Source: a virus
Taxonomy: Duplodnaviria; Caudoviricetes
Strand: one strand, 5' to 3'
Length of the DNA stretch: 64,000 bases
Virus record (IMG/VR): IMGVR_UViG_3300035208_004516
Span: 1-64,000 of that record
Both the position numbers and the translations under genes were made by a program. Of this stretch, positions 22,903 to 29,672 are shown one piece after another (positions within the stretch are counted from its first letter, which is position 1; each line of letters begins with the position of its first letter). The notes beneath the pieces were generated by a model that saw only the letters and a program-made list of their open reading frames with translations, was not told where the DNA came from and made no database searches.

Positions 22903-23915
22903 ATGACAGAATTAGATAATTTTTTTAGATATGATACTCCTTTAAATGATATCGATCAGGAGTATTTTATCTACCCAGGAAATCCAGTTACCCCTACTCA
23001 ACCAAATGAATTATCTAGTAGTAGTGCTGAGTCATTAAGTTCAAGCTCTAATGTAGAAATATCATCTAGTAGCTCTGTAGAAGTAGAACCTTTTTGGGAT
23101 GAAGGTACCTCCTTTCCTACTCCTTCATCAATATTTTTTGATTCTTCTACAGAATTTATTTATGGTACATGCACTGATACAATAATTAAAACTAAAATAA
23201 ATGGAGATGGGTTGATTACTTATGGTGGAATTGAATACTTCTATTACTGTACAGGAATATTTTTTGATTCTTCTACAGAATTTATTTATATATGTGATCG
23301 TGACAATTGTAGAATAGTAAAAACCAAAATAAATGGTATTGGTCGGACTGTATTCGGAAGTTATGGTTCTGGAGTTAATCAATTCAACGCCCATGCGCTA
23401 TTTTTTATGATTCTTCTACAGAATTTATTTATATATGTGATTGTGACAATCATAGAATAGTAAAAACCAAAATAAATGGAGATGGGTGGACTACATTCGG
23501 AAGTGAAGGTGGTGGAGTTAATCAATTCTATGATCCTTTAGGAATATTTTTTGATTCTTCTACAGAATTTATTTATGTTTCAGAAGCTACTGGAATAGTT
23601 AAAACTAAAATAAATGGAGATGGGTGGACTGCATTCAGAAGTTATGGTTCTGGAGTTAATCAATTCAATGAACCTTCAGGAATATTTTTTGATTCTAATA
23701 CAGAATTTATTTATATTGTAGACACGTATAATAACAGAGTAGTAAAAACTAAAATAAATGGTGATGGATGGACTACTTTGGGGAGTTATGGATCCGGAGT
23801 AAATCAATTCTCACACCCTCGTGGAATATCTTTTGATGTTATTAATAAATATTTATATGTTGCAGATGCGGAAAATCATAGAATAATAAAAACCAATATG
23901 TTAGATATTATGTAA
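22903..23915 (+). CDS. Second NHL-repeat protein, frameshifted near 23390
   Basis: 29 of the first 31 aa identical to 8967..10808; NHL repeats continue in another frame to TAA at 23913-23915. Confidence 0.85.
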
Positions 23916-23923
23916 CAAAAAAT

Positions 23924-23978
23924 TGTACAAAAAAATAAACCAGATTTCAATTAAGAATCTGGTTTATTTTTTTGTACA
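23924..23978. terminator. Bidirectional intrinsic terminator
   Basis: 23-bp perfect inverted repeat TGTACAAAAAAATAAACCAGATT between convergent genes. Confidence 0.85.
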
Positions 23979-24743
23979 TTAATTAAAATATATATTTCTT
24001 GGAAGATGACATCCAAGATCTATTGATTTTTTATTATCAAATTCTTCCTTGGTGATTTTTGTAAATACAATCTTATGCCAAAATTTTGACACAATAGACC
24101 GACAAAGGTCGCTGAATTTATCAGCTTCCTCATCACCATCTTCAGCGGCTTCATCAATTGAGGTAACAAACTCACCCCAATTCATTCCAGCCACCTCTGA
24201 TATTGCTGCTTCTATAGTGATGGCTCTTTGTAGGCGAGAATAATCATCTTCACCTACAAAGTGATGATTAAATTTACCCGACCGGGTATTATCATCTCTT
24301 CTCATTCCATCTCCCTCATAGACTTCTTCAACGAGGTCATCAAAATATTTCACTTCGAAGACATATCTAGGGAATTCAGGTGTTATTCTAAATTTTGGAG
24401 CAACTTGTAATTTTTCTTCAGATGATCCAATATAAAGAACTTCTTTCCAAAGAAATTTTGATCCCTCTGGAAGAGTTTTTGCTCCTTCAGGTAAACGGCC
24501 TCCCTGAAGTTGGGCAACCAAGAGAATATCACCAGAATTGAGTGTTATATTCTCTCTATTAAATTTTATCTCACATCCTGCGAATTGAGATAAAACTGCT
24601 GCTGTATCAGAGTGACCAATACAGCTTTTTGCATTATATACCCAACGTCGGATAACCTCTGGAGGTAGTTGTCCAAGATTTTTTATTTTGATTTCTCCCT
24701 CTCCGCACATTTGCAGAGAGAATGCATTTGATATGTATCTCAT
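23979..24743 (-). CDS. acrIII-1: AcrIII-1 (DUF1874 / STIV B116-like) cA4 ring nuclease fused to an unknown acidic C-terminal domain
   Basis: YISNAFSLQM, S.IGH.DTA, NR..I.L..GD, GRLPEG match the family motifs; about 145 extra C-terminal aa. Confidence 0.85.
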   Translation of the reverse strand: MRYISNAFSLQMCGEGEIKIKNLGQLPPEVIRRWVYNAKSCIGHSDTAAVLSQFAGCEIKFNRENITLNSGDILLVAQLQGGRLPEGAKTLPEGSKFLWKEVLYIGSSEEKLQVAPKFRITPEFPRYVFEVKYFDDLVEEVYEGDGMRRDDNTRSGKFNHHFVGEDDYSRLQRAITIEAAISEVAGMNWGEFVTSIDEAAEDGDEEADKFSDLCRSIVSKFWHKIVFTKITKEEFDNKKSIDLGCHLPRNIYFN

Positions 24744-24763
24744 ATATTTTCTCCTTATTTATT

Positions 24764-25315
24764 TTATTGCCAACTTCCAATTACATTTTTATTTCCTGCT
24801 CCTTTAGAAGCATCAAATTTAGAATAATTATCAGGCCCACAGGAATATATAACACTATAATCATTATTTAGAGCCTTTGAAGCATCCTCATTTGCAGCAA
24901 TAGTTCCATCTACAATAACATCTCCTGTTTTCAATATCGGAAACTGATAACCATATGGATTACCCCAGGGATCAAGCAACTTACCTTCATTATTAACTTG
25001 GCAATTTTTAAATTCAAAATACGGGCCAAATACTGGATTATCTCCAGTTGGATCACTGGTTCCATAAACTTCATTTTTTGTTAAAGGTTTCCCTAATTCA
25101 TCTTCTTTAATAGTTTTAGGAAAATGGCCAACGTCTCCATAAAATGAATTAACAGCATTTTGTAGATTCATTACTTCAATTCTTGCTCTAGTTATTTTTG
25201 ATTTTTCCACAGCAACATGAATCCCTACTGTTACAATGCCTATTAATAGTGCTATAATAGCCATAACAACCAATAATTCAATTAACGTAAAAGCTTTCTT
25301 TATGTTCATATACAA
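24764..25315 (-). CDS. Type IV pilin / T2SS GspG-like pseudopilin
   Basis: KKA|FTLIELLVVMAIIALL prepilin site with E+5; DPWGNPY; YSCGPD. Confidence 0.9.
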   Translation of the reverse strand: MYMNIKKAFTLIELLVVMAIIALLIGIVTVGIHVAVEKSKITRARIEVMNLQNAVNSFYGDVGHFPKTIKEDELGKPLTKNEVYGTSDPTGDNPVFGPYFEFKNCQVNNEGKLLDPWGNPYGYQFPILKTGDVIVDGTIAANEDASKALNNDYSVIYSCGPDNYSKFDASKGAGNKNVIGSWQ

Positions 25316-25324
25316 TCTCCTTTG

Positions 25325-25849
25325 TTATTGCCAACTACCAATATCATCTTTTATTGAACTTTCTATGTTTTTCTTACCATCTGGCCCCATAGAATAAATA
25401 ACAGGCCACCCATTATTTGCAGCATGCCAAGCTAAAGAATTAGCTTCTAAATTTGAAGTATCTTCTGGCATGTTATAAATATATGGATTTCCCCAAGGAT
25501 CAATTAATTTATCACCTTTCAAATTATGAGATTTAAATTGAAGATATGGGCCATATTCCGGATCTGTGTTTAATTTTTCAGGATGTGTAGATATATTTTT
25601 ATAAACATCATATTGTGATATTTTTTTTCCAAGAATATCTTCTGTTATATCTAAAGGATATCTTGTTGTATCAGAATAAAATTTTTTCACAGCATTATGA
25701 ATTGCATTCAGATCAGATCGAGCATTTGATATTCTTACTTTTTTCATTAAAACTGTTGCTCCATAAAAAGTCATCCCAATTAAAGCTATCATAATTGATA
25801 TAACAACCATCAGTTCTATTAAGGTAAAAGCTCTCTTAATTTTTTTCAT
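25325..25849 (-). CDS. Type IV pilin / T2SS GspG-like pseudopilin (paralog)
   Basis: KRA|FTLIELMVVISI; DPWGNPY; YSMGPDG; DDIGSW. Confidence 0.9.
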   Translation of the reverse strand: MKKIKRAFTLIELMVVISIMIALIGMTFYGATVLMKKVRISNARSDLNAIHNAVKKFYSDTTRYPLDITEDILGKKISQYDVYKNISTHPEKLNTDPEYGPYLQFKSHNLKGDKLIDPWGNPYIYNMPEDTSNLEANSLAWHAANNGWPVIYSMGPDGKKNIESSIKDDIGSWQ

Positions 25850-27895
25850 ATATTATCTCCTTTTTTGACGGATTACTCCGTCTGTTTTTATTTTTGCCAA
25901 CCCTAAATGTCTGGCAGTTATAATTATAGTTTAGACAGAATTTGAAATATTTTCAATATCCATTCTAATTAGTTGAAATTTTTTCATTAAGTTTGATACA
26001 TTTTTCCAATATTTCTTTTTAATAAAGAATTCTAACTTATCTTTAAAATATGGAGAAAAATGTTTAATTCCATACTTGTGTTTTCCCCATATAATTTCTA
26101 AAAAATTATATGAATAATCATAAGAAGATATTTTAAAATCCATATAATTATTATCCTTTCTGTAGTATATTTCTTAGAAACTCAGTAGAACTTTTATTGA
26201 TTCTATTTTTCAATTTAATATATTTAGAAAATATTACTGTTGAAATATAACAAATAAAAGTCAATGATGATGAAATAGCTATTGTTGTTAAAATATAAGA
26301 CATTCCAAGAACGAAATATATTTCACTTAAAAGTATTAATACAATCGAACCAATCAATACTATAAATACAAATACTAAAATTGTTTTCATATTTCTCCTT
26401 TTTTTCTTATTCTGTTAGACATTTATCTATTGCAGATATAACGAGTCACCATTATATCTGCTGATTATAAACATTAATTATTTTTTCATTTTCTTATTTG
26501 GATTCCTTTCTTGTTTAAATTTTAAAAATTACTATATTTTTAAAAACATCTAAAATAACAACCATTGTGGGAAATTTCTAATAACAGTGAATCTTGCCAT
26601 TTTAAATTGATAATTTTTTCTTCGATCTTTCTTTCGATTTTTGAATTATCAATAATGTGTTCAAAATTTCCCCCTATTATAGTTTTAAGTTCTTTTCTTA
26701 ATTCGTCATCTTGTAATTCCATAAGTTCTTTTGTTTTTTCTATCATAGTTTTACTCATAATATAATTTCCTTTATTTTATAAGTAAAAAATGGTGACTAT
26801 TTAAAAATATAAACAGTCACCGAAAATTTATGTACTACATATGACATCCTTTCTGTTATATATCAGTACAATACTTCTCCTAATTCAAATAGAAATATAT
26901 ATAGTGATTTAAATCTATTCAAAGTGATAAATAGAACAAATATAAAAAGGAATGAAACGATATGTCTATTAAAAAAGAAGTTAAATATTTAAATGAAATT
27001 TTACAAAAGAATTCCATGACACCGTTGAGTGAACAAACAATTCATGAATTGATTATTAATAAAAAAAAATTACCTAAACAAATACAAGAAGGTATTAGAA
27101 AAACAATATCTAGTATATTGGGAATTCCTGTTCTTGGATTAGTAGGGTGGGTATGGTACAGACTTATTAGAGCAACAATGGATCAAGCTACAAGAAAATG
27201 CGGAATACTAGGAATTAACACTACACGTAGACAAAATTGTATGTCATTAGCTAAAATTGAAAGTTTAGAAAACTCTAAAAATTTTATTAATTCATCACAA
27301 CTTGCTTCTGAAAAAAAGAAAAAAATATTAAATAAAATTAATATGAAAATAGAAAAATTAAGAGAAAAAATATTACATAATAACCCAACAAAAATCTCAA
27401 CTCCGTCACCATCAACGAATATGATGTAAATAATGAAAAATAAAAACATGTATGCTAAAAATGAAATTATATATTAAACCTGAAAAAGAAATATATTTAA
27501 AAATTCAACAATTTTTAAAAAATTAACTATATTGTAAAAGATCTTCATAATAGGAATTTGAAATGTTATATAAAGGATTTGTTATTAAGTTTATTTATGA
27601 CGATATAAATGACTACATAGTTTATGAACATGGTATGCAAGAAATAATCTTCAGAACTGGTGATATAGACCAGTGTAAAAATTACATTGATAATATAATA
27701 AAGGAGCATAAATAAAAGTATGTAATCATAGTAACGGGGGGGGTATATGTTTCAGTGAAATATGAATTCTGCAAGATTGAAGAAAAATTATTAGAAGCAA
27801 AAGAAAAAATAAGAGAATTAGAAAAGGAATTATCATCTACTAATTAAACTGTTACTCTCAAACTAGAACTCGAATATATTAAAAGGAAGTTAAAT

Positions 27896-28589: not shown

Positions 28590-29672
28590 ATGTCGAGACA
28601 ATTAGCAACCATACAAAAAATTTCTTCTTTACAACCCATAATTGGAGCTGATAAAATTGAAAAAGTAACAATTCTTGGGTGGGAAGTTGTTGTAAAAAAA
28701 GATAGTTTTAAATTAAATGAATTATGTGTCTATTGTGAGATTGATTCAATACTTCCGGATAAACCAGAATTTGAATTTTTAAAAGAACGTAAATTCAGAA
28801 TAAAAACTATAAAATTGAAAAAACAAATATCACAAGGAATTTGTTTTCCTTTATCAATTTTACCAAGCAATAAAAAATATAAAGAGAATGATGATGTATC
28901 AGATATTTTAGAAATTAAAAAATATGATCCTCAATTAGAAACAGAAGAATCAGAAAATTCTAAATTTTCCACTAATAGATTTATTAAGTTTTTTTATAGA
29001 TTTTCATGGTTCAGAAAATTAATTTGTCCTAAAAAATTATCATGGCCTCAATTTATTAGAAAAACAAATGAAACTAGAATTCAACAATTTTGTGATATTT
29101 GTAATACAGAAAAAGATACCATTTTAGAAGTTACAGAGAAATTAGATGGACAATCCGCAACCTATTTTCTTATTAGAAATAAGAAAAGTTTTCTATTCGG
29201 AAATAGATATACATTCGGAGTATGCTCAAGAAATATATATTTAAAGAAACCAAATAATAGTTCTTATTGGGAAATCTCCAATGAATTAAAAATAGAAAGA
29301 AAATTAAAATTCTTTTTAGATCAGCATAATGATTTAAATTATGTTGTTTTACAAGGAGAAATTCTAGGGAAAAAAATACAAGGGAATAAATATAATATTG
29401 AAAATTATAAATTGTATTTATTTAATGCATTTACTGATAAAGATAATAATATAAAAAATCTTATTTGTTCGTTATTTAATTTAGAATCTGTTCCTTTATT
29501 AGATGGACAATTTAAATTAAAAGAAAATATTCCAGCGATGGTTGAATATAGCAAAGGAAAATCTAAAATTAATAATAAAATTCGTCGTGAAGGAATAGTG
29601 TTAAGAAATTATGAAAAAGGTTTAAGTTTGAAAGTAATCAATCCAGAATTTTTGTTAGAATATGATGAATAA
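28590..29672 (+). CDS. ATP-dependent RNA ligase, DRB0094/Rnl5 type
   Basis: N-terminal RQLATIQ..I.GADKIE..GW.VVV, YCEIDS, TEKLDG, QGE, REG, LKVI. Confidence 0.9.
   Translation: MSRQLATIQKISSLQPIIGADKIEKVTILGWEVVVKKDSFKLNELCVYCEIDSILPDKPEFEFLKERKFRIKTIKLKKQISQGICFPLSILPSNKKYKENDDVSDILEIKKYDPQLETEESENSKFSTNRFIKFFYRFSWFRKLICPKKLSWPQFIRKTNETRIQQFCDICNTEKDTILEVTEKLDGQSATYFLIRNKKSFLFGNRYTFGVCSRNIYLKKPNNSSYWEISNELKIERKLKFFLDQHNDLNYVVLQGEILGKKIQGNKYNIENYKLYLFNAFTDKDNNIKNLICSLFNLESVPLLDGQFKLKENIPAMVEYSKGKSKINNKIRREGIVLRNYEKGLSLKVINPEFLLEYDE

Follow-up and report, generated by a model that had tools for sequence, protein, structure and literature searches.

Why should a tailed phage carry genes for two pilus subunits directly beside a gene for an anti-CRISPR protein? 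The question is raised by a locus in the IMG/VR virus record IMGVR_UViG_3300035208_004516, a linear sequence of 100,327 bp, of which we analysed the first 64 kb (hereafter called the window). On the minus strand of the window, positions 23979–25849 hold three intact open reading frames (ORFs), which encode two prepilins of the GspG type, named pilin 1 and pilin 2 here, and a protein with a predicted AcrIII-1 ring nuclease domain. As a tentative answer, which we rate slightly short of an even chance, we propose that the pilins re-coat or disable a filament of the host against phages and are accompanied by an anti-CRISPR protein (Acr) that would degrade cyclic tetra-adenylate (cA4).

Two intact prepilins of the GspG type

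Pilin 1 (25325–25849, minus strand; 174 amino acids) and pilin 2 (24764–25309, minus strand; 181 amino acids counted from its ATG) both exceed the Pfam gathering cut-offs of the T2SSG family (PF08334; 21 bits) and of the N_methyl family (21.2 bits). T2SSG is matched with 32.1 bits by pilin 1 (E = 1.2e-7) and with 28.9 bits by pilin 2 (E = 1.2e-6), while the N_methyl scores amount to 23.9 bits (E = 2.9e-5) and 31.1 bits (E = 1.5e-7), respectively. The leaders are short, basic and of class III (MKKIKRA/FTLIE in pilin 1, MNIKKA/FTLIE in pilin 2), and both proteins have Ala at position −1, Phe at +1, Glu at +5, a hydrophobic helix and a DPWGNPY motif. The prepilin cleavage and methylation site, E+5 and the DPWG.PY motif, which the original prediction had read from both proteins, are thus intact.

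The same holds for the proposed likeness to GspG, which is evident from both sequence and fold. Pilin 1 was modelled with AlphaFold2 from an alignment of 44 sequences, and the model reached a mean predicted local distance difference test (pLDDT) value of 90.7. When it was compared with the PDB by Foldseek, all top 15 matches were major pseudopilins of type II secretion systems (T2SS), namely EpsG, PulG, XcpT and GspG of enterohaemorrhagic Escherichia coli, with probabilities of 0.94–1.0 and target-normalised template modelling (TM) scores of 0.49–0.63. A fold search of BFVD yielded no significant match of pilin 1 to a viral structure (best E = 0.14). Both genes encode GspG-type prepilins and are intact and phage-borne. 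With 42% identity (BLASTP, 2e-41) and a common IGSWQ C-terminus, pilin 1 and pilin 2 are paralogues as judged by sequence comparison.

With GspG, PulG, EpsG and XcpT the phage pilins share the class III signal, F+1, E+5, DPWG..Y and the fold, and pilin 1 also has the GPDG...DDIG motifs. They differ from GspG and PulG by about 35–40 extra residues, including an insertion within the alpha-beta loop, and by the lack of adjacent gsp genes, both in the phage and in the cellular relatives; pilin 2 in addition lacks the Asp pair.

Pilin genes of a phage that encodes no assembly machinery on the record

Most proteins of the record lack a family assignment, and the few that have one are of tailed-phage type. 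These include a tail-fibre protein (phrog_5668, 4.6e-41), a gp6-like baseplate wedge (7e-15), two virion structural proteins and a T4-type RNA ligase (5e-67). CheckV estimates the completeness of the record at 51%, from which a phage genome of about 200 kb can be deduced.

Could the pilin genes be stray host DNA? The G+C content of the phage is 26.6%, and the interval at 24–26 kb stands out with 0.327 against approximately 0.25 in its flanks. This rise stems mostly from codon positions 1 and 2, with the acr gene contributing most. At third codon positions (GC3), the pilin genes have values of 0.149 and 0.159, compared to a contig mean of 0.143 ± 0.035. Misassembled host DNA is ruled out by this agreement with the phage mean together with the phage genes on both flanks. 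The GC3 values indicate that the pilins are long-resident phage genes, and the observation that no cellular protein exceeds 51% identity to them points in the same direction.

The Pfam models T2SSE for the assembly ATPase, T2SSF for the platform protein, Peptidase_A24 for the prepilin peptidase and Secretin had no match in the whole 100,327-bp record; as a control, the same searches matched 9 to 14 of 14 control genomes. A motif scan of the record turned up no pilins besides these two, nor is there a gsp gene cluster around the phage pilins on it. What the original prediction had stated for the window, namely that it holds no assembly ATPase, secretin or prepilin peptidase, thus extends to the entire record with its completeness of 51%.

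A filament of the host as the probable destination

What could a phage gain from pilins if it relies on the machinery of its host? We hypothesise that a large tailed phage, probably a virulent one, carries this locus as an accessory operon with a twofold protective effect. The prepilins would be made in the infected cell and placed in the inner membrane, and the host prepilin peptidase would cleave and N-methylate them. A type IV pilus or T2SS-type machine of the host would then polymerise the phage pilins, which would replace the host subunit or share the filament with it. The resulting filament, either re-surfaced or disabled, would be unusable by pilus-binding phages, which amounts to superinfection exclusion or receptor masking of the kind described for the protein P-FimU; the altered surface would also be the one bound by the phage's own progeny. 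The product of the third gene would degrade cA4 and thereby blunt type III CRISPR and other cA4-dependent defences.

Processing by the host and re-coating of a receptor had already been suggested in the original prediction, and this part now has an experimental precedent, whereas nothing emerged that would tie the pilins functionally to the acr gene. In Pseudomonas, the prophage-encoded P-FimU is built into the type IV pilus, which stays functional, and phages that bind the pilus tip are kept from adsorbing (Sztanko et al., Cell Rep 2026; PMC12952977). The same study describes P-PilA, which is encoded by Xylella prophages (approximately 50% identical to host PilA) and by four groups of virulent phages (PMC12952977). 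The present case resembles P-FimU and P-PilA in that a phage homologue of a pilus subunit occurs without phage assembly genes (on a record that is 51% complete) and in that the identity of P-PilA to the host protein is comparable to the 36–51% found between the phage pilins and their cellular clade. A role in the host filament and a block of adsorption have been proposed or shown for these proteins, and virulent phages are among their carriers. Unlike in those systems, the present proteins are members of the GspG/T2SSG family and have its calcium-site fold, occur as two diverged paralogues and share an operon with an acr gene.

Should the proposed mechanism hold true, the strategy of replacing a receptor component would reach beyond its single proven case, the Pseudomonas prophages. 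It would then cover subunits of the GspG family, large phages of the virulent type and uncultured low-G+C hosts, possibly related to the Planctomycetes-Verrucomicrobia-Chlamydiae (PVC) bacteria.

The calcium site differs between the two copies

The calcium ligands of PulG and OutG are D117, S/T122, D125 and possibly D124, and the site controls the stability of both pilin and pilus (PMC13081927). We mapped these ligands via a profile alignment to PulG. The loop is longer than that of PulG. Pilin 1 retains the GPDG...DDIG calcium-site motifs. Pilin 2 retains the first Asp, while the Asp pair at the positions of D124 and D125 in PulG is exchanged for Asn-Val (KNVIG). In the 11-member clade to which both phage pilins belong (see below), at least 90% of the members agree at the first position of the pair, with pilin 2 as the exception; departures at the second position occur in pilin 2 (Val) and in the member P0140 (Asn). 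Pilin 2 furthermore has two Cys residues without an equivalent in pilin 1.

But, does the phage re-coat the filament at all, or does it simply break it? The phage subunits, and pilin 2 in particular, could act in a dominant-negative manner and poison or over-extend the host filament, so that twitching, DNA uptake or type II secretion is shut down. The Asn-Val exchange at D124/D125 fits such a role since the calcium site governs stability, and so does the fact that both proteins are of the major-pseudopilin type. When over-produced, PulG and XcpT form long surface pseudopili and secretion is disturbed. A truncated phage PilA, too, may inhibit assembly (PMC12952977). However, pilin 1 has all calcium-site motifs and looks competent, the two Cys residues of pilin 2 might stand in for calcium as a stabiliser, and P-FimU, the sole experimentally studied case, spares pilus function. 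We hence regard poisoning of the filament as unlikely, though as an explanation worth keeping in mind.

Both ideas could be merged into a two-part device aimed at a T2SS-type or other endopilus machine instead of a surface type IV pilus. Pilin 1 would be the competent subunit that enters the filament, and pilin 2, devoid of the calcium ligands, a cap or poison that locks it in a state of benefit to the phage, e.g. with the secretin plugged or the uptake of DNA prevented. Expressed on an early transcript together with the acr gene, the operon would work as a cassette that 'closes the door and disarms'; this version appears improbable to us. Paralogues with and without the calcium ligands constitute a natural experiment on the assembly competence of pseudopilins.

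A pilin subfamily of cellular origin

Neither IMG/VR and INPHARED (tblastn) nor JGI metagenome contigs contained close relatives of either pilin, and a search with subfamily-specific sequence patterns added no further close pilin relatives. A word-indexed search retrieved only distant GspG-like proteins with at most 35% identity; one of these distant homologues (P0003) is a true GspG encoded within a full gspE-F-G-H-I-J-K-L...D operon. A profile search among 1.84 billion representatives gave 30,041 matches at E ≤ 1e-3. Only nine of them reached E ≤ 1e-30: the two phage pilins and seven others. Together with two slightly weaker matches, these nine form a clade of 11 members with lengths of 163–188 amino acids, in which the nine cellular or metagenomic members are 36–51% identical to pilin 1. 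The clade is characterised by the motifs FGPYxEFK, DPWGNPY, NGFxIVxSxGPDG and a C-terminal DDIGSWQ. It has a support of 90/93 in a maximum-likelihood tree, and both phage copies branch without resolution at its base, so that one acquisition followed by duplication and two separate acquisitions are indistinguishable from this tree.

Among the five clade members for which contigs were examined, four are situated on clearly cellular contigs; the contig of the fifth (L013) measures only 1.2 kb. Three independent contigs of uncultured bacteria share a module (L011:9387–11127, L118:7324–9149 and L120:7402–9106) composed of a type A pilin of about 200–226 amino acids, a type B clade pilin and maf, the type B pilin being GspG-like, about 175 amino acids long and ending in DDIGSWQ. 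Housekeeping genes surround this pilin-pilin-maf locus, among them those for RuvB, Rho, 3-deoxy-D-arabino-heptulosonate 7-phosphate (DAHP) synthase, indole-3-glycerol-phosphate synthase (IGPS) and phosphoribosylanthranilate isomerase (PRAI). The same pair of pilins is found on a 1.2-kb contig, and one clade member stands alone on a contig with a G+C content of 27.8%, close to the 26.6% of the phage. Assembly genes are absent beside the examined clade loci. Of this pair, the phage has only the downstream partner, type B, in duplicate, and lacks the upstream type A. We conclude that the pilin subfamily is of cellular origin.

Such an origin brings up another explanation, in which the phage does not fight over the filament but keeps it running: fresh subunits would sustain a pilus-dependent function after the shut-off of host transcription. 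Such a function might be adhesion to a surface or to a partner cell, or the uptake of DNA or nutrients. The conserved housekeeping setting of the cellular homologues (maf; DAHP synthase, Rho, a RuvB-like protein) suggests a core function, and large phages with host envelope genes are known (10.64898/2026.10.24.761521). Yet, the phage copies are only 36–51% identical to the cellular homologues, and the phage carries the type B partner only, in duplicate, which fits better to diversification under conflict. Upkeep of a host function is therefore decidedly unlikely in our view, even more so than poisoning of the filament, and we continue to favour re-coating or disabling.

Which host might be concerned? 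The original prediction had taken the AFTLIELLVV style of the pilins, which is abundant in PVC bacteria, as a weak clue. We searched 201 genomes per phylum with the clade profile (E ≤ 1e-15) and obtained matches in 21 of 201 genomes of Omnitrophota (best score 105 bits) and 59 of 201 of Verrucomicrobiota (85 bits), while Elusimicrobiota gave none (0/201, hence no score), which lends mild support to that clue. Looser relatives of the subfamily are common in PVC phyla. The IGPS of the best cellular locus did not discriminate, with approximately 45% identity in Omnitrophota and Verrucomicrobiota alike, and comparisons of the RNA ligase and the baseplate protein were uninformative about the host. 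One clade member, P0137, comes from a genome of a phylum with 79 species. This genome and a relative encode many ATPases of the PilB/GspE and PilT types, several PilM proteins and two to three prepilin peptidases; a T2SSK match was absent from these two genomes. The ATPases, PilM proteins and peptidases indicate that the lineage is able to process and assemble such pilins. The subfamily and the pilin-pilin-maf locus could in turn serve as a handle for host prediction.

An AcrIII-1 domain with an orphan tail

The third gene (23979–24743, minus strand) codes for an AcrIII-1/DUF1874 protein of 254 amino acids (PF08960, 6.6e-9; phrog_5063, 1e-14). Residues 3–87 match the STIV_B116-like family PF08960 with 36.3 bits (cut-off 26) and align to AFV3-109, STIV B116 and SIRV1 ORF114 over the IGH and RLxEG motifs. 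Across 25 aligned sequences, comprising this protein and 24 homologues from metagenomes, neither H44 nor the GGRLPEG loop varies. H44 is the counterpart of H47 in SIRV1 gp29, the absolutely conserved general acid of the ring nuclease, in which a mobile loop closes over cA4 (10.1101/778746). The N-terminal domain (approximately residues 1–110) was modelled with pLDDT values above 90, and Foldseek placed 6SCF, 2J85 and 2X4I on top, all with probability 1.0, as was the match to Csx1-Crn2; named by protein, the best PDB matches are AcrIII-1 (6SCF), B116, ORF114, AFV3-109 and the Crn2 part of Csx1-Crn2. Sequence and model thus agree on a predicted AcrIII-1 ring nuclease, with the same family, fold and catalytic His as AcrIII-1 (SIRV1 gp29, STIV B116 and the DUF1874 protein of phage THSA-485A) and Crn2. 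Genes of the DUF1874/AcrIII-1 family have been reported in tailed phages before (10.1101/778746).

The C-terminal region from about residue 110 to 254 (approximately 150 residues) is acidic and has pLDDT values below 65. Among 5.8 billion proteins, it has no relatives besides a near-identical copy on a 1.6-kb contig, and no neighbour in the Atlas. This tail, without relatives, sets the protein apart from AcrIII-1 proteins, of which others have different extensions or tandem duplications. The original prediction of an acrIII-1 gene is therefore correct as to family, fold and catalytic His and incomplete as to the roughly 150-residue extension, which its account of the finding had left out. Variable extensions are common in the DUF1874 family, and some members have an N-terminal one of about 140–190 residues. 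The novelty of the Acr protein is limited to its orphan C-terminal extension, the rest being ordinary. As an example of variation in the family, a separate group of proteins of about 288 amino acids (P0026, P0033 and P0046) has a conserved N-terminal extension of about 190 residues. The closest Acr relative (P0014; L007:5450–6115) is a single-chain tandem of two DUF1874 domains, in which copy 2 keeps IGH and copy 1 has VGF.

Pilins and the acr gene as neighbours

Do the three genes belong together? With a G+C content of 0.365, the acr gene ranks first among all 85 genes of the contig, and its GC3 of 0.227 corresponds to z = 2.4. As the pilins match the phage mean, this composition suggests that the acr gene was acquired more recently than they were. 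The original prediction had proposed a search for pilin-acr neighbourhoods in other phages. A broad scan of IMG/VR for pilin-type N-termini yielded 52 viral loci (L129–L180); none of the 52 had a DUF1874 gene within 6 kb of the pilin, and none of these pilins had a DPWG motif. The closest Acr relative, P0014, has no pilin neighbours. For the loci examined, these two results speak against a recurrent pilin-acr module, and the pairing is probably plain adjacency within an accessory or anti-defence region.

This outcome raises the possibility that the genes are unrelated morons which came to lie side by side, with pilins that have little or no function or a role outside a pilus, e.g. as a membrane anchor. 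Such a reading would account for a pairing that is not conserved elsewhere and for the contrast between the composition of the acr gene (G+C 0.365, GC3 z = 2.4) and that of the pilins at the phage mean, which suggests separate times of acquisition. On the other hand, both pilin ORFs have stayed intact despite their divergence to 42% identity and possess good ribosome-binding sites, and the family-defining motifs of the clade are kept, which argues for selection on a pilin-type function. We therefore consider pilins without a pilus function to be the least probable of the explanations weighed here.

Phage-borne pilins in general do recur, and the GspG-type pair was the single instance found in this survey. 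Within the IMG/VR scan, at least 40 viral contigs of up to 229 kb encode single proteins of 290–410 amino acids with a prepilin leader. All four of those proteins that were checked against Pfam contain DUF1559 (PF07596), the domain of a family of pilin-like proteins characteristic of Planctomycetota and Verrucomicrobiota. In one case (L151:5995–7068, on a 171-kb contig), the pilin gene is situated between the primase and the exonuclease of a replication module that also has a DnaB helicase and a DNA polymerase; its position inside this module identifies it as truly phage-encoded. Like the proteins studied here, the DUF1559 proteins of viral contigs have an N_methyl prepilin leader and no assembly genes nearby; they differ in their globular domain, in being single products of 290–410 amino acids and in lacking DPWG. 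We found no paper mentioning both DUF1559 and phage. N_methyl Pfam matches were tabulated for T4-like Aeromonas phages as early as 2006 (PMC1524935), and PHROGs includes a 'pilin' moron family. Phage-encoded pilus subunits as such are hence already known, and their combination with an acr gene did not recur among the 52 viral loci examined; unusual in the present case are the GspG-type fold, the duplication and the loss of calcium ligands in the second copy.

Several points weigh against the proposed re-coating or disabling of a host filament. The other half or so of the phage genome lies outside the record and could carry assembly genes. The residue at −1 is Ala instead of the usual Gly; in model systems Ala at this position is tolerated and less efficient, and several cellular members of the subfamily have it as well. 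Mimicry of a host pilin is putative, as it is deduced from the cellular clade. Pilin 2, judged by its missing Asp pair of main calcium ligands, may be no normal building block, and the pilin and acr genes are possibly neighbours by chance. Finally, processing, incorporation, the target filament, the exclusion phenotype, cA4 cleavage and early co-transcription are all steps that we infer.

Operon layout and neighbouring elements

Each of the three genes is preceded by AAGGAG about 7 nt ahead of its ATG, in line with the ribosome-binding sites that had been noted for the intact ORFs. The intergenic gaps measure 15 bp between pilin 1 and pilin 2 and 20 bp between pilin 2 and the acr gene. A TTG listed as the start of pilin 2 (25315) lies only 1 nt past its ribosome-binding site; the true start is accordingly the ATG at 25309.

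A bidirectional intrinsic terminator at 23924–23978 closes the operon and separates it from a convergent plus-strand gene that ends at 23915. Its hairpin folds with −29.2 kcal/mol (z = −9.9), and none of 200 shuffled sequences folded equally well; the perfect stem of about 23 bp agrees with the 23-bp terminator described originally. Flanked by an A-run and a T-run, the hairpin can terminate both the operon and the convergent gene.

Upstream of pilin 1, a leader or intergenic stretch of 81 bp (25850–25930, minus strand; fold z = −3.3) comprises a TATAAT box (25928–25923), two small hairpins and the ribosome-binding site AAGGAG (25862–25857). The TATAAT box noted in the original prediction is present, yet it says nothing in favour of a promoter: a good −35 box is missing for it, and such boxes occur at chance level in AT-rich DNA. 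Sigma-70-like sites are not enriched in the region (14 found, 18.6 expected from shuffles), and the 13-mer around TATAAT repeats no more often than expected by chance, so that a conserved promoter motif was not found. One leader hairpin (25867–25882) is GC-rich and, when read on the plus strand, forms an intrinsic terminator with stem and T-run; it could keep antisense transcripts from running into the operon or lend structure to the 5' untranslated region.

Three small ORFs of 72, 79 and 70 amino acids follow further upstream on the same strand (25931–26758, minus strand), none of them with a Pfam or PHROG family, and beyond them lies a divergent intergenic region (26759–26961). This arrangement suggests that the leftward transcription unit may begin further upstream, at the divergent region, and that the three ORFs may be part of the same unit as the pilins. 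The product of the 79-residue ORF (26151–26390), located two genes upstream of pilin 1, is very hydrophobic with two to three membrane helices by eye, and could be a small membrane partner.

Among deposited phages, the T4-type RNA ligase (28590–29672 of the window) matches an uncultured megaphage of 735 kb best, with 39.8% identity; Microcystis phage Mic1 ranks second. The window contains no tRNA genes. Just upstream of the 72-residue ORF, within the divergent region, the minus strand has a terminator-like hairpin with a 12-bp stem (26792–26821), where shuffled sequences lead one to expect none.

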